A stretch of 17,017 nucleotides of DNA from the UHGV virus genome UHGV-0118085; one strand, 5' to 3'. Under the pieces are notes generated by a model. It ran no database searches. It was not told where the DNA came from and worked only from the letters and a program-made list of their open reading frames with translations. This stretch comes from a virus. Both the position numbers and the translations under genes were made by a program. The number at the start of each line of letters is the position of its first letter. Positions within the stretch are counted from its first letter, which is position 1. Below are positions 113-17,007 of the stretch, piece after piece.

Positions 113-134
113 TGAAACAAAAGGATTTGTTTCA
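113..134. repeat. Perfect 9-bp inverted repeat tgaaacaaa-agga-tttgtttca
   Basis: Read directly from the sequence, between the att core and the arm-type repeats. Function unknown; possibly a protein-binding site in the att arm. Confidence 0.4.
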
Positions 135-140
135 TGTGAT

Positions 141-158
141 GTCCACACATCGTCCACA
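141..158. promoter_or_regulatory. Two direct GTCCACA repeats 11 bp apart, candidate integrase arm-type sites
   Basis: GTCCACA occurs at 141..147 and 152..158. The same pair with the same 11-bp spacing occurs at 16863..16869 and 16874..16880. Direct repeats one helical turn apart flanking both ends is the pattern expected for tyrosine-integrase arm sites. Confidence 0.5.
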
Positions 159-2956: not shown

Positions 2957-4039
2957 ATGGCGATTCCAGCAAAATTGCGGCTGTTCACCTGCTTCGTGAA
3001 CAGCGTAAACAATATCGGCAAAGTGACATCTGTGACGCTGCCAAAACTGACCCGGAAAACGGAAGACTACCAGGGCGGCGGCATGATTGGTTCCGTTGCC
3101 GTCGATCTCGGACTGGATATCTGGCGATTCTGGGAACCGATCAAAGCCTTCTTTGCGGGCTTCTTTGCCGGTGTGATGCAGGCTCTTACACCGTTCCGGG
3201 ATGCCTTTGCCGGGCTGGCCCCCGTCTTTGATGTGATCTCGAATGCCGTTTCTGAGTTATGGCAGTGGTTCAGCAACCTGCTTTCACCAATGACGACCAG
3301 CAAAGAGATGCTTGATAAATGCGCAAGCGCTGGGGAGACATTCGGCAAAGTGTTTGGCCTGGCAATTCAGGGGTTAATGTTGCCTCTGACCGGGCTAGCC
3401 AAAATGGTTGGATGGATACTTGAAAAGCTGGGACTGATTCCATCCGGGATTGAAACAGCAAAAGCAAAAGCTGAGAAGGTACAGAAGGAACTAACACCGG
3501 CAGGATTGACTATGCTGCAGGACAAAGTTGGCGCGCTCACTGGTGATGTAAAAGCAGTAACCGCACCACCTATCGCACCGCCATCACCGGTGATTGCCGC
3601 AGATACAGGAACACAACGACGCTTACAGAAAATTGCCGACAACACCGGCGGGATGCTGGATGAAACCAAAAAACGGATCGGCCCTGGCGATATAGTGTTT
3701 AAAAACCTGCCCCGCGCATTAGCCGTCCACGGCACATGGCAGGAAGCACAATCAACCCAAGGCGCTAACCTGACCCAACTGAGCGGGCGACCGGTTATCG
3801 CAGCGGCATCAGCCCCGATTAAACCAGCGGCTGAAATACAGGCTATTGGCGGGCAATCCAGGAAACAAATCAGCAGATCGGCGCAAAACACCACGCCTGA
3901 TGAAATGCATATTCACATTCATATGCACGGCAATTTCAGCAACGACGCCCGCGACATTGCGCGCATGACCGCCGACGCAGTACAGGCAGAATTTAATAAG
4001 CGCTTCCGCTCACGTAGCAGCTTCAGTGACAATGAATAG
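2957..4039 (+). CDS. Chimeric ORF: tail-tube (FII-like) N-terminus fused in frame to a tape-measure (gpT-like) C-terminal portion; probably a deletion remnant
   Basis: The first ~54 residues (MAIPAKLRLF...VTLPKLTRK...VDLGLD) resemble the tail-tube N-terminus. The remainder is an Ala/Gly-rich, partly hydrophobic sequence typical of a tape-measure C-terminus. 360 aa is far too long for a tube protein (about 170 aa) and far too short for a tape measure (about 800 aa). Confidence 0.6.
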   Translation: MAIPAKLRLFTCFVNSVNNIGKVTSVTLPKLTRKTEDYQGGGMIGSVAVDLGLDIWRFWEPIKAFFAGFFAGVMQALTPFRDAFAGLAPVFDVISNAVSELWQWFSNLLSPMTTSKEMLDKCASAGETFGKVFGLAIQGLMLPLTGLAKMVGWILEKLGLIPSGIETAKAKAEKVQKELTPAGLTMLQDKVGALTGDVKAVTAPPIAPPSPVIAADTGTQRRLQKIADNTGGMLDETKKRIGPGDIVFKNLPRALAVHGTWQEAQSTQGANLTQLSGRPVIAAASAPIKPAAEIQAIGGQSRKQISRSAQNTTPDEMHIHIHMHGNFSNDARDIARMTADAVQAEFNKRFRSRSSFSDNE

Positions 4040-4051
4040 GAGAGCAAAACA

Positions 4052-5749
4052 ATGATGATGGTTTACGGAATGTTCGTCTTTGAGTTAAAAACCGTTCCCC
4101 ACCAACAGTTGCAGCAATCAAAGACCTGGAGGCATGTGAAGAACGAACGCATAAACCGATCGGCAAAATGGCAATACATTGGCGCGGGTGACGATCAAAT
4201 CACCCTATGCCAACTCACCATGAAGCCGACAAAGACGGGCGGCGATCTGAAGGAAATTGACGCGCTCACGCGCCAGGTGAAGAAACTGGCAGAAGGACAA
4301 CCGGCGCAGCCATTCAAGAAAGCGCGCGCGAGCAAAAAGAAAAACCACTTCACCGAAGCGCAGATCGCCGCGCTGCGGGAAAAAATTCAGGACTCCTTGG
4401 CCTGGCATCAGCAAGGATGGTTTGAACAGCGCCAGCAGCGCAACCGCATGATCCTGAAAAGTCGCCAGATTGGCGCTACCTGGTACTTTGCCCGTGAAGC
4501 GCTTTTACAGGCGCTGCGGGATGACGTTAAGCACGGGTATCAGCGCAACCAGATTTTTCTGTCAGCGTCACGTCGCCAGGCGCACCAGTTCCGGGGCTTC
4601 ATCCAGAAGGTTGCAGAAGAAGTCGACGTAGAGCTAAAAGGCGGTGACAAAATTTTGTTATCTAACGGGGCCGAATTGCATTTTCTCGGCACGTCTGCTG
4701 CTACCGCGCAGAGCTACACCGGCAACCTGTTTTTCGACGAATTTTTCTGGGTAGGTAACTTTGCCAACCTCCGCAAGGTGGCTGGCGCAATGGCAACCCT
4801 GAAAGGACTGACGCGCACTTATTTTTCAACGCCATCGAGCGAAAGCCATGAAGCCTACCCCTTCTGGACGGGTAAGCGCTGGAATGAGAAGCGGGCAAAA
4901 TCCAGCCGAGTAGAGTTCGACACAAGCTGGAAGACGCTCAACAGCGGCCTGTTGTGCCCGGATAAAACCTGGCGGCAGATTGTCACCCTGAAGGACGTGA
5001 TCGACCACGGCTGGGAGTTCACCGACCTGGAAGAAATCCAGGACGAAAATACCCCGGACGAATACACCAACCTGTACATGTGTGAGTTCGTCAAAGAAGG
5101 TGAATCCGTTTTCTCACTTAATCAGCTACTGACGTGCGGCGCGGACGGCTACGACGACTGGCAGGACTGGAAACCCTACGCCCCCCGCCCGCTTGGCGAT
5201 CGTGAAGTCTGGATAGGCTACGACGCCAACGGCGGCAGTGGCAACGGTGACAGCGGCGCTGTTTCCGTGGTTACCCCTCCCCTGGTCAGTGGCGGCAAGT
5301 TCCGCACGATAGAGACGCGCCAGCTACGCGGGATGGAGTTTGAAGAACAGGCCAAAGTGATCGAAGACCTGACCATTAAATACAACGTCCGGCACATCGC
5401 AATTGACGGTACCGGCATTGGTGAAGCGGTCTGGCAACTGGTCAAGAAATTCTTCCCGGCGGCGGTCTGTTTCATCATGTCGCTGTCATCAAAGCGCACT
5501 CTGGTACTCAAAATGCAGCAGGTGATCCGCGCGGGCCGCTGGGAGTATGACCGTAGTGAACAGGCGTTAGTGTCAGCATTCAACGCCGTCAGGAAAATCA
5601 CCACCGCCGGTGGACAAATTACCTATGACACCGATCGCGCGCGCGGCGTCAGTCATGGCGACTTAGCCTGGGCAAATATGCTGGCAATCATCAACGAGCC
5701 ACTTGGACGCGAGAACGGCAGCGGCGGCGGTTCCGTAAGAGAGTTTTAA
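4052..5749 (+). CDS. Chimeric ORF: gpU-like tail-protein N-terminus (about 65 aa) fused in frame to a nearly complete large terminase (gpP-like, ATPase plus nuclease)
   Basis: The N-terminus MMMVYGMFVFELKTVPHQQLQ...WRH...ITL...TGG matches the gpU family pattern. The rest carries terminase large-subunit features (KSRQIGATWYFAREAL, QIFLSAS, GNLFFDEFFWV, YFSTPSS...YPFWTG, C-terminal IAIDGTGIG). An RBS (GGAG) precedes the ATG, and the stop overlaps the Q start (TAATG). Confidence 0.65.
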   Translation: MMMVYGMFVFELKTVPHQQLQQSKTWRHVKNERINRSAKWQYIGAGDDQITLCQLTMKPTKTGGDLKEIDALTRQVKKLAEGQPAQPFKKARASKKKNHFTEAQIAALREKIQDSLAWHQQGWFEQRQQRNRMILKSRQIGATWYFAREALLQALRDDVKHGYQRNQIFLSASRRQAHQFRGFIQKVAEEVDVELKGGDKILLSNGAELHFLGTSAATAQSYTGNLFFDEFFWVGNFANLRKVAGAMATLKGLTRTYFSTPSSESHEAYPFWTGKRWNEKRAKSSRVEFDTSWKTLNSGLLCPDKTWRQIVTLKDVIDHGWEFTDLEEIQDENTPDEYTNLYMCEFVKEGESVFSLNQLLTCGADGYDDWQDWKPYAPRPLGDREVWIGYDANGGSGNGDSGAVSVVTPPLVSGGKFRTIETRQLRGMEFEEQAKVIEDLTIKYNVRHIAIDGTGIGEAVWQLVKKFFPAAVCFIMSLSSKRTLVLKMQQVIRAGRWEYDRSEQALVSAFNAVRKITTAGGQITYDTDRARGVSHGDLAWANMLAIINEPLGRENGSGGGSVREF

Positions 5750-7152: not shown

Positions 7153-9924
7153 TTAATCATCTAGCAACGGATCTTGTGCCTTACTGGAATTAACTTGCTC
7201 CAAATGCTTAATACAATCTTCACTTGAAATAAAATAGACCTTAGGTTTTTTCCTTAGCTCATATGTCAAAAATACTGTCACTTCCATTTTTACATACGTT
7301 TTCAGATTAGTTTCATTTATATCTAATCCTCTTGAAGTCAACAAACTATCAGATGGAGAAGTGAAAGATGCTTTTAATATATCGTCTCCCTCAAGAGAAA
7401 AACAACAAACATCATCAAGATGAATATAATAAAAACCATCCTTATTAAATTTTACATCATTTTGTACTCTATATCTCATTCCTCTGTAGAATCTGACGTT
7501 ATGATCAAAATCATTCTCTATTGCGCTTATAGTTATAAACTTCAAACCTTCAGGGAGTTGGTTAAGATTCTTAATAATAACAACATCCATATCATGAAGA
7601 TCACTAATCAAATGAGAAGTGATGAGTTTGAAAACATTTGCCGCATATAAAGATGGAGATTGGGAATATATTTCTCCATTAATGGGCTTAATAATCTGTC
7701 GCTTCGTAATTAGATATTCAAAAACAAACTTGTCACTAATATTTTCACAACTACACTCTAAAGTAGCAAACTCACGAAATGTTTTTATGAAATCATTTTT
7801 TAATCCATCTTCATATAGCTTCATGAGTTCTTCATCATAAGGAGTATTGATCACATCATTGACTTGAATATCAAGAATCTTAGAGTTTATTTCTTCAAAT
7901 CCAGAAAGTAGATTATGCTTACGCTCATCAAAACTATTAAGCTCATCATTATGAGCTTCTAATTCGAGTAAATCCATAACTTCTCTAAAAAAATCTGATT
8001 GATATATAGACATGACATCATCTATAAAATGAGATGAAAGATTATTTACCTTTACAAGGTTCTCTAAATCATCAATATATATTAGACTTAAACCATTATT
8101 GTACGAACGACCTTTGAATAAAATCAATGCTAAAGCAAAAGCCATATAATGTTGTGATCTTATAGAAATAGCACCTGAGCCAGTTGCATCCCTTATTTCA
8201 AACTCATCTATATCATCTAAAAAAACAGATTTTAACGAAAAAAGAATATCATAAACTTCTGATATGAAGTAAATCTCCGTTAAGTAATGAGGATTCAACC
8301 ATTGGCTCAGCAAGTTTGCCAGATCTAATATTTCCTCATTCTTATTTTTTAGTTCACATAATCGAATGCCATCATTTTTTCCTAGTAGGTGCTCCAACCG
8401 CATTCCAATACAAGATATCACTATTTTATTCGCATCAATCAGCAAGGATTGTCTAGTATTCAATTCAGATGATGAAATGCCAATATAAATGTTATTATTC
8501 CCAGTAAGAAATGTAGTGTTTATTTTAAAAGCATCATAATGTCTATTGACAAGGTTTTTAATACTCGACTTAAGATAAATCTCAAGAAACTTATCACTTT
8601 CAGAATACATAACTCTTTCTTCTGTGAAACTCCTAGACTCAATCAAAAAACCATAATATGAAGATGGATCATAAATTATTCTCGGAAGAGAAAGCATAGA
8701 ACTAAAGACGATTAGAGCTTTTTCAATATCGGTATATAGAAGAAGCCATAGCAACTTATTATAAAACGCGAATAGTATTGTTTGTGGTGTATTTTTTGAG
8801 GATGGGGATTCATATATGAATCGTTCCAAACTTAAAAACACTCCTGCACTTTGAGATTTTGAAATTATTAAATATATTACTTCCACACAAAAATCAAGTT
8901 GACTACTTAAACTCCCCTGCAAGGTGTTTAATGTATTCCTTACAACCATCAACTCTATTTCATCATAAAAATAGAAATTTTCGCTTTCATTAAGATAATT
9001 GAATGATTTACTAATGAGCGTTTTAATTTTATTAAGAGACTCATGATTTTGATTCAAATTAATGCCTTCATCAGAAAAAATAATGGCATCTCTATCAATC
9101 ATAGGCTTGTGAAATGTAGGTGAGATATATAATACAACTTTTGAAGTGCCGAAAATTTTTGTTAGTTCAGCATTCAATTTATTTAGATTATTCTTATTAA
9201 GGCCAACTATTACTTTCTTATCCGTAGAATATGTATTTTTAATTTTTACTCCATTTAGAGGCATGAACTCCATTTCATATTTAATAACTGAATTCTGTTG
9301 GTTTTTTATAAAATTACGAAATTCAGCAAGTAGATGCTTGCTATTATTATTACTATCTAAAACAAATGAACTAACTTCCGTTACTTTATTCAATAAAATT
9401 GCATCAATCAACTCTTTTTTCTCTGTTATATAATATAAACTCCTGAACATGGATATGTATCGGAATATAAAAAAAACAGAGCATGATACTGACAAGGCAT
9501 ATTGAATAACCCCCCCACCGATTACCAAGAAAAAGATTCCCACAAATAATCCGCAAATAGCATTAAGGCTGAATGAATAAAATTTATATTCTCTCAATAC
9601 CAATTGCCTTGTTACATTAACAAAATACTTATTTGATGCCTCTGTAACCTGTTGAACAAACATTCCCATAAATGCAATTGATAATGCAGCGATTGTTCCG
9701 TGGATTGATAATATAGTTCCCCAAGAGCTAGGAATCCAATTTAACTCTGCTTTATTAACGTATAACGGAGAAATAAAGAGCCAGCGATAGTCAGAATCTC
9801 CTCCTGCCCCTACAAAAAATAAAACCGAACCTAAAAGCAAAATTAAACCCATCTTAATAAAAGACTCAATTGCTTTTTTACCTGTGAATTCAGCCACCTG
9901 CTTTGATATTTTACCACTATCCAT
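7153..9924 (-). CDS. Large AT-rich cargo protein of unknown function with about four N-terminal transmembrane helices; candidate anti-phage defence or exclusion protein
   Basis: Uninterrupted 923-codon ORF. Sampled 60-nt lines inside it give 19/60 and 14/60 G+C, against 37/60 in a sampled line of gene A. Hydrophobic segments fall at residues about 25-41, 66-90 and 118-165 (nt about 9430..9852). No Walker A, HUH, DPPY or other motif recognised in the soluble part. It occupies the P2 tin/old position between A and cos/Q. Confidence 0.8.
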   Translation of the reverse strand: MDSGKISKQVAEFTGKKAIESFIKMGLILLLGSVLFFVGAGGDSDYRWLFISPLYVNKAELNWIPSSWGTILSIHGTIAALSIAFMGMFVQQVTEASNKYFVNVTRQLVLREYKFYSFSLNAICGLFVGIFFLVIGGGVIQYALSVSCSVFFIFRYISMFRSLYYITEKKELIDAILLNKVTEVSSFVLDSNNNSKHLLAEFRNFIKNQQNSVIKYEMEFMPLNGVKIKNTYSTDKKVIVGLNKNNLNKLNAELTKIFGTSKVVLYISPTFHKPMIDRDAIIFSDEGINLNQNHESLNKIKTLISKSFNYLNESENFYFYDEIELMVVRNTLNTLQGSLSSQLDFCVEVIYLIISKSQSAGVFLSLERFIYESPSSKNTPQTILFAFYNKLLWLLLYTDIEKALIVFSSMLSLPRIIYDPSSYYGFLIESRSFTEERVMYSESDKFLEIYLKSSIKNLVNRHYDAFKINTTFLTGNNNIYIGISSSELNTRQSLLIDANKIVISCIGMRLEHLLGKNDGIRLCELKNKNEEILDLANLLSQWLNPHYLTEIYFISEVYDILFSLKSVFLDDIDEFEIRDATGSGAISIRSQHYMAFALALILFKGRSYNNGLSLIYIDDLENLVKVNNLSSHFIDDVMSIYQSDFFREVMDLLELEAHNDELNSFDERKHNLLSGFEEINSKILDIQVNDVINTPYDEELMKLYEDGLKNDFIKTFREFATLECSCENISDKFVFEYLITKRQIIKPINGEIYSQSPSLYAANVFKLITSHLISDLHDMDVVIIKNLNQLPEGLKFITISAIENDFDHNVRFYRGMRYRVQNDVKFNKDGFYYIHLDDVCCFSLEGDDILKASFTSPSDSLLTSRGLDINETNLKTYVKMEVTVFLTYELRKKPKVYFISSEDCIKHLEQVNSSKAQDPLLDD

Positions 9925-14992: not shown

Positions 14993-15265
14993 TTAAAGGC
15001 CCATCCAGAGCAACCAGGCATCACGCTGTTCAACCGGGCGGTTATAGAACGCCTCACGCACCCCGCGATTGAACTCAGGAACAAAGACCAGCTTTTCTCC
15101 CGCGCGCGCTTTTGGCTTCGACGGATCACGAAACTCAATAACCGGCAGCTTATTTTTTTCAATCATGGTTTGTACGGCTGTGCGTGGTTTACCTAGCAAT
15201 TCCGCGAACTTATCAGGATGTACCGCATCAAGCGGGTACTGAATAACGTAATCAGCAGCTTCCAT
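14993..15265 (-). CDS. cox: Cox-like excisionase / early repressor of the lysogenic promoter
   Basis: 90-aa ORF divergent from the C repressor gene, resembling P2 Cox (FAELLGKPRTAVQTMIEKNKLPVIEF...). It is the first gene of the minus-strand early operon leading to A. Confidence 0.75.
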   Translation of the reverse strand: MEAADYVIQYPLDAVHPDKFAELLGKPRTAVQTMIEKNKLPVIEFRDPSKPKARAGEKLVFVPEFNRGVREAFYNRPVEQRDAWLLWMGL

Positions 15266-15426
15266 AAACTATCTCCATTCTCATTTGGTTACATGCTAAC
15301 CTTGTAAGATCCAGCGGCTTTAAAACGGCTCAGGATGGTTCCTGAGCGGCTGGACTCACGCCCAAAAAGGTTCTGAGTCAATGACCTTTTCGGGTGAGTA
15401 TAGTCATTAAGTCAGGACCAAATCAA
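15266..15426. promoter_or_regulatory. Divergent early/lysogenic promoter-operator region between cox and C
   Basis: 161-bp intergenic region between divergent cox and C. It contains a perfect palindrome gctcagga-tggt-tcctgagc (15328..15347), near-direct repeats ggttcctgag / ggttctgag (15338..15347 and 15369..15377), and a -10-like TATAGT (15399..15404) upstream of C. Confidence 0.55.
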
Positions 15427-15862: not shown

Positions 15863-16843
15863 ATGACTATCAAAAGACTCGATGATGGGCGTTATGAAGT
15901 GGATATCAGACCGCGCGGGCGTGAAGGACGTCGCATCCGCCGAAAATTTGAGAGAAAGGCTGAAGCTATTGCCTTTGAGCGCTACACATTAGCGAACGCT
16001 AACCAGAAGGAATGGGCGGGCCAGAGAACAGATCGCAGATCTCTATCTGAATTACTGGATGCCTGGTGGAAGTATCACGGTCAAAACCATGAACACGGTG
16101 AGAAGGAATTTAACCACCTCACGAAGACGATCGGCGGCATCGGTGACATACCCGTTAGCCGCGTGAGCAAACGGCTCCTGATGGACTACCGTTCTATGCG
16201 ACTTCGTGACGGTATCAAGGCATCAACAATTAACCGTGATATGTACCGTTTTTCAGGCATGTTCACCAAGTTGATTCAGTTGGAAGAGTTTTCCGGCACA
16301 CATCCAGTGCATGGACTACCGCCACTGGCAGAAGAAAACCCAGAAATGACATTTCTGGCAAAGGAAGAGATCAGCAGCTTACTAAATGCCTTAACCGGCG
16401 ATGCAAGATTGATTGCCCTTCTGGGCGTCAGTACCGGTGCGCGATGGTCTGAGTTGGCAACGTTAAAGCCTTCTCAGATCGTCAATTGCCGCGTGACTTT
16501 CCTGAAGACCAAAAACGGGAAAAAGCGCACTGTTCCAATTTCTGCTGAACTAGAAAAACTGATCAAGAGGGAGGCAAGCGCGAAACTGTTTAAAGTGGAC
16601 TATGAAAAATTTTGTCTGATCCTGAAGGCGGTAAAACCAGATATACCCCCGAACCAGGCAACACATATTCTGCGTCATACCTTCGCAAGTCATTTTATGA
16701 TGAATGGGGGTAACATTATCGCGCTACAGCAGATATTAGGACATGCCAGCATCCAGCAAACGATGGTTTACGCGCATCTGTCGCCAGACTATCTGCAAAA
16801 TGCTGTCTCACTAAATCCCCTTGCCGGTGGCGTATCGCTTTAA
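15863..16843 (+). CDS. int: Tyrosine integrase (P2 Int family)
   Basis: 326-aa ORF with the catalytic signature HILRHTFASH ... MVYAHL (H-x-x-R and the nucleophilic Tyr). It lies downstream of C on the same strand and next to the right att repeat, as in P2. Confidence 0.9.
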   Translation: MTIKRLDDGRYEVDIRPRGREGRRIRRKFERKAEAIAFERYTLANANQKEWAGQRTDRRSLSELLDAWWKYHGQNHEHGEKEFNHLTKTIGGIGDIPVSRVSKRLLMDYRSMRLRDGIKASTINRDMYRFSGMFTKLIQLEEFSGTHPVHGLPPLAEENPEMTFLAKEEISSLLNALTGDARLIALLGVSTGARWSELATLKPSQIVNCRVTFLKTKNGKKRTVPISAELEKLIKREASAKLFKVDYEKFCLILKAVKPDIPPNQATHILRHTFASHFMMNGGNIIALQQILGHASIQQTMVYAHLSPDYLQNAVSLNPLAGGVSL

Positions 16844-16854
16844 GATAGGAGTGA

Positions 16855-16887
16855 CCTAGAGTGTCCACATTGTGTCCACACTCTAGG
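16855..16887. promoter_or_regulatory. Inverted repeat cctagagtg / cactctagg enclosing two direct GTCCACA repeats; candidate integrase arm-type sites
   Basis: GTCCACA at 16863..16869 and 16874..16880, 11 bp apart, identical in sequence and spacing to 141..158. It sits between the integrase stop and the att core. Confidence 0.5.
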
Positions 16888-16962
16888 AAATTCAAAACGG
16901 CTCAGGCTGGCTCCAGCATTTTATAAGTAGCTGTTTTTACTTGAGGTTATACGTAAGTTATT

Positions 16963-17007
16963 GATAAAAAAAACCCCCACATCATGTGGGGGAAGACAGG
17001 GATGGTG
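16963..17007. repeat. Attachment-site direct repeat, int-proximal copy
   Basis: Matches 45..89 at 44 of 45 positions and includes the same A-run plus ccccaca/tgtgggg hairpin. Confidence 0.8.

Follow-up and report, generated by a model that had tools for sequence, protein, structure and literature searches.

Predicted integrase arm-type sites and a putative IHF site in the attachment region of a defective P2-like prophage

P2-type attachment sites and the element analysed

The arm sites bound by integrases of the P2 type have the consensus tgTGGaCa, and those of the 186 type have the consensus tgccGCCActt (PMC3448106). Recognition of the arms has been assigned to the N-terminal domain of the integrase, in which the proposed discriminator residues are Y, D and R in the P2 type versus W, E and Y in the 186 type (PMC3448106). 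Both types follow the same logic, the 186 type having two direct repeats on each side that are read by the N-terminal domain (PMC3448106). Integration of P2 requires IHF (PMC7581858), and Cox binds attP (PMC3936717). The features of P2 attP used here were taken from the protein_bind features of the GenBank record NC_001895 and from PMC3448106. In the record they are ordered as the ogr terminator, the Int P arm (aTGTGGTCAatgTGTGGACG), IHF, the attP core, Cox, the Int P′ arm (TGTGGACActgTGTGGACA) and int, the Cox site thus being annotated between the core and the P′ arm.

The attP of phage lambda (P1, P2, P′1-3; H1, H2, H′) is comparable in that its integrase is heterobivalent and spans arm and core across a bend made by IHF. 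Its arm motif is unrelated, and the P2 type has fewer arm and IHF sites and Cox in place of Xis. The H′ site of lambda is laid out as an A-tract followed by WATCAA-N4-TTR, and the P2-type IHF site is laid out alike.

The DNA analysed here, a stretch of 17,017 nt that we call the window, represents a P2-like prophage of E. coli that deletions have reduced to 16.9 kb. Its status as a deletion derivative follows from the intact E. coli relatives, in which the stretch from U to the terminase normally includes the genes for capsid, small terminase, baseplate, fibre and lysis. The same relatives show that the divergent order of ogr and D, followed by sheath, tube, E, T and U, is natural in the lineage. 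From left to right the window encodes ogr, gpD, the tail sheath, two fusion ORFs, the portal, a 923-aa ORF, replication gene A, a Dam-type methylase, cox, a C-type repressor and int. The ogr late-gene activator (192–440, − strand, 82 aa) was recognized by Pfam Ogr_Delta (E = 4.5e-19), and its Rho-independent terminator (161–186, − strand; hairpin 169–186, T-run 161–168) has the position of the P2 ogr terminator.

The two fusion ORFs, at 2957–4039 and 4052–5749, are both in-frame. In one, residues 1–54 of the tail tube are followed by the C-terminal portion of the tape measure; in the other, residues 1–75 of gpU are followed by a large terminase that lacks its N-terminus. The fusions mark two deletions, in which E, T and the U-to-P region have gone, and with them every capsid, baseplate, fibre and lysis gene. 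At least 23 contigs, derived from assemblies of E. coli and from metagenomes of the human gut, encode the identical U′-P′ protein. The 923-aa ORF (7153–9924, − strand) lies between the portal/cos end and gene A, the position of variable cargo in the P2 family. It had no Pfam or PADLOC match and matched only PHROGs of unknown function, and its 14 homologues are all unnamed or 'hypothetical', with E. coli, Citrobacter, Lelliottia, Enterobacter, Kosakonia and Serratia among the named sources.

The element is bracketed by a 45-bp direct repeat with a single mismatch (98% identical). The copy at 45–89 is the att core of the ogr-proximal junction (P-O-B′, attR in P2 nomenclature) and contains the hairpin CCCCACATCATGTGGGG at 57–73, and the copy at 16963–17007 is the core of the int-proximal junction (B-O-P′, attL). 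The 45-bp core is identical to the attP core of SI7, FSLSP004, HQ103, L-413C, P37 and R18C, which form the WPhi/L-413C group, the core of L-413C being that of WPhi (PMC3448106), and differs from the core of P2 (AAAAAATAAGCCCGTGTAAGGGAGATT). The left flank (1–44) is identical to E. coli K-12 DNA between cpxQ and fieF. A WPhi-type attachment site fits these observations, as the core is identical and the flanks match K-12 between cpxP/cpxQ and fieF, downstream of cpxP.

The core also corresponds to the 3′ 41 nt of the sRNA gene cpxQ (cpxP 3′UTR, K-12 b4716; L407 3331–3388), terminator hairpin included. In the integrated prophage it is the copy at 16963–17007, read on the − strand, that supplies the 3′ end and terminator of CpxQ, with one loop base changed (G in K-12, T here). 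A relative in E. coli ES1 has compensatory changes in the core hairpin (CCCCTCCATCATGGAGGGG). The literature searched yielded no link between CpxQ and P2-like phages. A scan of the whole window with Rfam at gathering thresholds gave no match; the window holds 55 of the 58 nt of cpxQ (45 in the core and 10 in the flank), evidently short of the gathering score of any Rfam family.

Direct repeats and the integrase N-terminus

The earlier note on this DNA had reported GTCCACA twice, 11 bp apart, at 141–158, and the identical pair with identical spacing at 16863–16880 near the integrase. Both pairs were confirmed. On the + strand the motif occupies 141–147, 152–158, 16863–16869 and 16874–16880, both pairs being spaced 11 bp start-to-start, and in the whole window there are two further, lone copies on the − strand (424–430 and 2806–2812). 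From base composition, 1.1e-4 GTCCACA pairs of spacing 11 are expected per 17-kb window against the two observed, and just 1 of 5000 mononucleotide shuffles contained one such pair or more. A chance origin of the pairs is thus excluded. Among the 7-mers of the window, GTCCACA alone forms same-spacing pairs at two places, and 50 kb of E. coli K-12 around the attB locus contained no GTCCACA pair, only two single 7-mers.

Extended to 8-mers, three of the four arm copies read TGTCCACA and one reads CGTCCACA. The P arm has its core-proximal site at 140–147 (TGTCCACA, or TGTGGACA on the − strand) and its ogr-proximal site at 151–158 (CGTCCACA), the latter with the same C variant as in SI7, FSLSP004, HQ103, L-413C, P37 and R18C. 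The P′ arm has its int-proximal site at 16862–16869, 19 bp past the int stop codon, and its core-proximal site at 16873–16880, both TGTCCACA; all four are given as read on the + strand. When compared with the published P2-family consensus, GTCCACA proved to be the reverse complement of tgTGGaCa (PMC3448106): on the − strand three copies read TGTGGACA, matching at 8/8 positions, and one reads TGTGGACG, matching at 7/8. Arm sites of the 186 type, whose motif and N-terminal signature are other than those found here, were also considered and rejected, tgccGCCActt with up to two mismatches being absent from 90–190 and 16844–16962.

One of the lone copies extends to a fifth TGTCCACA, inside ogr (424–430, − strand) and in the orientation opposite to that of the arm repeats. 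It arises from the codons of a zinc-finger C-P-H-C (ATGTTCAAATGTCCACATTGTGG), resembles the P′ arm sequence TGTCCACATTGTG and is probably a coding coincidence.

The att features of the window are in the same order as in the P2 record, and the number, spacing, orientation and position of the repeats are those of the Int P-arm and P′-arm protein_bind features of NC_001895. The P arm is placed between the ogr terminator and the putative IHF site plus core, and the P′ arm adjoins int at its 3′ end. P2 attP (features 24265–24496) has the same motif TGTGGACA, the same 11-bp spacing and four repeats in one orientation, but its ogr-proximal P repeat is TGTGGTCA where the window has TGTGGACG. The P′ repeats of P2 also lie inside the last int codons, whereas those of the window are non-coding and in another frame, which places their conservation at the DNA level. 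A reading of the repeats as coding relics was rejected on these two points.

To compare whole sites, the attP of the window was rebuilt from both junctions by joining 16820–17007 to 90–200. The rebuilt attP (int, P′ arm, core, P arm, ogr) is colinear with those of seven sequenced P2-like phages, namely P2, SI7, FSLSP004, HQ103, L-413C, P37 and R18C. The window and six of the phages have their first P′ and first P repeats 196 bp apart; in P2 this distance, at 174 bp, is shorter by 22 bp, or two helical turns. The phages of the WPhi/L-413C group share with the window the core, the 196-bp distance, TGTCCACA / CGTCCACA and a 326-aa integrase; in contrast, their repeat-to-core arms are just 74–82% identical to those of the window and their Cox region differs. 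The colinearity agrees with the further claim of the earlier note, that the repeats support the att assignment.

The pair pattern (14 bases) was also scanned over 596 Gb of genome contigs. Most matches were chance occurrences in GC-rich genomes (median GC 66%), and only 2–3 of 120 adjoined a P2-like integrase, so the pattern is not diagnostic alone and context decides. Among viral contigs with the pattern, 58 of 120 had a gene for a P2-like Int, Ogr or D no more than 600 bp away, and the integrases next to it were as little as 37% identical to that of the window.

The int gene (15863–16843, + strand) encodes a tyrosine integrase of 326 aa with Pfam domains Int_N (57–155) and Phage_integrase (164–307). 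Its best PDB match, 5c6k (E = 1.4e-85), gives an alignment starting at query residue 48. Residues 1–56, which lie outside the Pfam core-binding and catalytic domains, are presumed to form the arm-binding domain. The protein is 52% identical to P2 Int over residues 1–225, with near-identity over residues 1–45. This segment includes GRYEVDIRP, a strand that is identical in P2 Int and holds the proposed discriminator residues.

Across relatives, the arm motif changes together with this N-terminal strand. Among distinct int ends with an exact pair in the P′ arm, GTCCACA goes with G(R/S)YEVD(I/V)RP in 30 of 31, GTCTACA with GQYEVDVWP in all four and CATCCAC with GRYKVD(L/I)RP in all three, counts that do not represent independent events, since the GTCCACA and GTCTACA sets were fetched by pattern and many of the sequences are related. 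The viral contigs found via the integrase mostly end at the int stop codon and therefore supplied few P′ arms.

The consensus, the P2 features, the colinear attP, the integrase N-terminus and the covariation agree, and all point to the identification put forward in the earlier note, of the repeats as arm sites for the integrase N-terminal domain. On this sequence evidence we consider it very probable that the window holds a complete integrated P2-family element between two junctions, with four TGTCCACA-type repeats (140–158 and 16862–16880) as its arm-type sites. The P2 family is already documented to have this attachment site and IHF site, and repeats of this motif, number, spacing, orientation and position. 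The earlier reading is thus correct but ordinary, and the mechanism of P2-family integration gains nothing new from it. Its use is that the boundaries and recombination apparatus of the element are confirmed, and that attL, attR and the arm, IHF and candidate Cox sites can be labelled by homology. Of more interest are three by-products: the coincidence of the core with the 3′ end of cpxQ, the covariation of motif and N-terminal strand, and the compensated symmetry of the IHF region.

The inverted repeat of the P arm

Next to the P-arm repeats, the earlier note had described a perfect 9-bp inverted repeat, tgaaacaaa/tttgtttca. The note assigned it no function. It is present at 113–121/126–134 and is in fact one pair longer, giving 10 bp at 112–121/126–135 (ATGAAACAAA / TTTGTTTCAT, 4 nt apart). 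An A-tract makes up its left half, and the right half overlaps an IHF-like TTTCA. Perfect 9-bp inverted repeats with spacers of 3–10 nt occur in about one-third of shuffled windows, and a second one is found at 2980 of the window itself. Taken alone, the repeat is statistically unremarkable; its weight comes from conservation in related phages and not from its perfection.

The inverted repeat has its P2 homologue, AGAAATAAATCCTTTTATTTCA, within the stretch annotated as the IHF site, a region that reads TGAAACAAATCCTTTTGTTTCA in the window. An IHF-like core element, TTTCATTCGGTTA (105–117, − strand), aligns with TTTCAATTTATTG inside the same P2 protein_bind feature; of the 9 positions that WATCAANNNNTTR specifies it matches 7, as AT-rich DNA often does by chance. 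A search based on Ogr gave only ∼10 P2-type P arms, and a large set was hence fetched with a pattern that fixes some columns (AATCC.TT). The 54 distinct P arms gathered span several core sequences (21 different 20-nt core proxies) and share the module TCGATGTGGTCAATgTGTGGACA-N5-tGAaATAAATCCtTTTATTTCA-N5-TTA. The TCA is present in 53 of the 54 and TTR in 48 of the 54, while the 5 nt between them take 33 different sequences. TCA-N5-TTR with a variable spacer is, in these alignments, the pattern of the IHF consensus WATCAANNNNTTR. Taken together, the P2 homology, the conservation of TCA-N5-TTR, the placement of the A-tract as in lambda H′ and the need of P2 integration for IHF make the inverted repeat best read as part of a putative IHF bending site. 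Most likely, the repeat at 112–135 and the adjoining TCA-N5-TTA form the IHF bending site of the P arm.

The symmetry itself is conserved to a degree that this reading does not predict. In 50 distinct P arms the inverted repeat is kept, with 92.9% of cells paired and compensatory changes at three pairs. At pair 4, 40 sequences have A:T and 7 have T:A; at pair 6, 41 have T:A, 4 have C:G and 1 has A:T, with a few intermediates. Double changes were found in 13 cells against 2.0 in column shuffles, none of 500 of which reached 13, and slid controls were lower, figures that have to be read knowing that the P arms are related and that the retrieval pattern fixed part of the repeat. A compensatory difference is also seen between the L-413C group (GATATAAA/TTTATATC) and the window (GAAACAAA/TTTGTTTC). 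The dyad symmetry is thus maintained by compensation beyond what an asymmetric IHF site requires.

These data raise the alternative that the inverted repeat has a role other than, or in addition to, that of an IHF site, its symmetry being functional either in binding a symmetric dimeric protein or in forming a hairpin in DNA or in RNA, such as a read-through transcript of int. The predicted hairpin has a folding energy of −9.2 or −9.7 kcal/mol (z = −2.7 or −4.3), and this, the paired cells, the excess of double-change cells and the three compensatory pairs (A:T to T:A, T:A to C:G or A:T) would all be accommodated, as would a palindrome at the equivalent place in 186-type P arms. Set against this, the stretch is the annotated IHF site of the P2 record, TCA-N5-TTR with its variable spacer is an IHF signature, and the distant P arms L285 and L288 keep AATCC, TCA and TTA but have lost much of the symmetry. 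Moreover, the sequences are related and not independent, and the AATCC.TT columns were fixed by the retrieval pattern. A terminator was considered in particular and rejected, there being no T-run 3′ of the hairpin on either strand. We regard a functional symmetry as unlikely, and the read-through hairpin likewise. It is similarly doubtful that the IHF-region dyad (GAAAYAAA-N4-TTTRTTTC) was itself selected and represents a second function in P2-type attP. The IHF bending site remains our preferred reading of the repeat.

The 186-type palindrome was seen in P arms located downstream of ogr-like genes (L223, L235, L253, L255 and L257), which have GTGGCAGCA-type repeats by a tRNA core. The palindrome is long, encloses an IHF-like TATCATAAGCTTA and lies between arm repeats and core, its sequence being quite unlike that of the P2-type inverted repeat.

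Candidate Cox element, predicted recombination and tandem prophages

The cox gene (14993–15265, − strand, 90 aa; Pfam Phage_Cox, E = 1.2e-22) presumably encodes the excisionase, or directionality factor, of the element. A 24-bp element occurs at 16891–16914 (+ strand) in the P′ arm, where P2 has its Cox protein_bind feature between the core and the P′ arm, and again at 15319–15342 (+ strand) in the intergenic cox-C switch region. The two copies agree at 21 of 24 positions, an identity reached in none of 300 shuffles (maximum 18), and the same pairing of switch region and P′ arm is found in the E. coli ES1 prophage (20/24). The element has the form TT(T/C)AAAACGGCTCAGG(A/C)TGG(T/C)TCC, and CGGCT recurs at 15315, 15326 and 15347. 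Since the switch region of P2 is a target of Cox, as is the part of its attP that separates core and P′ arm (NC_001895; PMC3936717), the shared 24-mer is a candidate Cox site, its switch-region copy being a candidate Cox operator. It does not fit the P2 cox-box, TTAAAGNCA.

The switch region also bears on whether the direct repeats might instead be operators for the immunity repressor C or for Cox. The P2 C operators O1 and O2 are, in the P2 record, a pair of short 8-bp sites, and attP is bound by Cox (PMC3936717), which would be in keeping with such a role. However, GTCCACA is absent from the cox-C switch region of the window, and the element common to that region and the P′ arm is the different 24-mer. 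The TGTGGACA repeats, moreover, flank the core in phages whose repeat-to-core P′ regions are divergent (P2, L-413C and SI7), adjoin integrases that are only 37–56% identical and vary with the integrase N-terminal strand. An operator function is therefore extremely improbable, and we retain the assignment of the repeats as integrase arm sites.

With this assignment, the N-terminal domain of the integrase (approximately residues 1–55) would be expected to bind the arm repeats, and the remainder of the protein to bind and cut the core (45–89 and 16963–17007). As both activities would reside in one protein, a single integrase molecule could bridge arm and core. Bridging would need a sharp bend of the P arm, which IHF bound in the 112–135 region would supply. 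In the prophage, the substrates for excision would be the ogr-proximal junction, with P arm, IHF site and core, and the int-proximal junction, with core, Cox region and P′ arm, and Cox at the 24-bp element of the P′ arm would set directionality towards excision. We infer these steps by homology, as we do binding and recombination activity for an element that is defective.

That defect bears on a further possibility, that the prophage is dead, has ceased to recombine and retains the repeats only as vestiges. The loss of the capsid, small terminase, baseplate, fibre and lysis genes and the two gene fusions speak for this. The element is 99.99–100% identical in two E. coli assemblies and several gut metagenomes (L529–L533), beside fieF, pfkA and sbp, and because it is defective and its copies are nearly identical, conservation within it cannot show present-day function of the sites. 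On the other hand, the genes int, cox and C are intact, as are the two cores and the four arm repeats, the integrase aligns over its full length with the catalytic domain present, and several assemblies share the locus of the element, which in one case follows a second P2-like prophage in tandem. We judge loss of activity to be the less likely state, though a serious contender. It concerns present activity and not identity, and is compatible with the repeats being arm-type sites.

The tandem arrangement is in a 50-kb metagenome contig (L530; ENA ERZ27266050, contig k141_171365), where the element lies directly behind another P2-like prophage. The junction (1412–2700) is a hybrid att, consisting of the P′ arm of the other phage (TGTCTACAtctTGTCTACA), the shared core and the P arm of the element. 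The upstream integrase has GQYEVDVWP where that of the element has GRYEVDIRP, which suggests, from the sequences, a second arm specificity on the same cpxQ core. The P arm of L288 matches this second specificity (TGTAGTCA/TGTAGACG), and L131 is another hybrid. Were the arm specificities truly distinct, tandem residents such as these could be excised independently. A general division of cpxQ-core elements, into those with TGTGGACA and an R10/R16 integrase and those with TGTAGACA and a Q10/W16 integrase, is a tentative proposal to which we give low confidence.

A different arrangement is found in Kosakonia oryziphila (L448; NZ_FMBC01000035.1, 3563–6384), where ogr and a 5′-truncated int face each other over an unsplit attP-like region, and this may be a tandem or a rearranged prophage.
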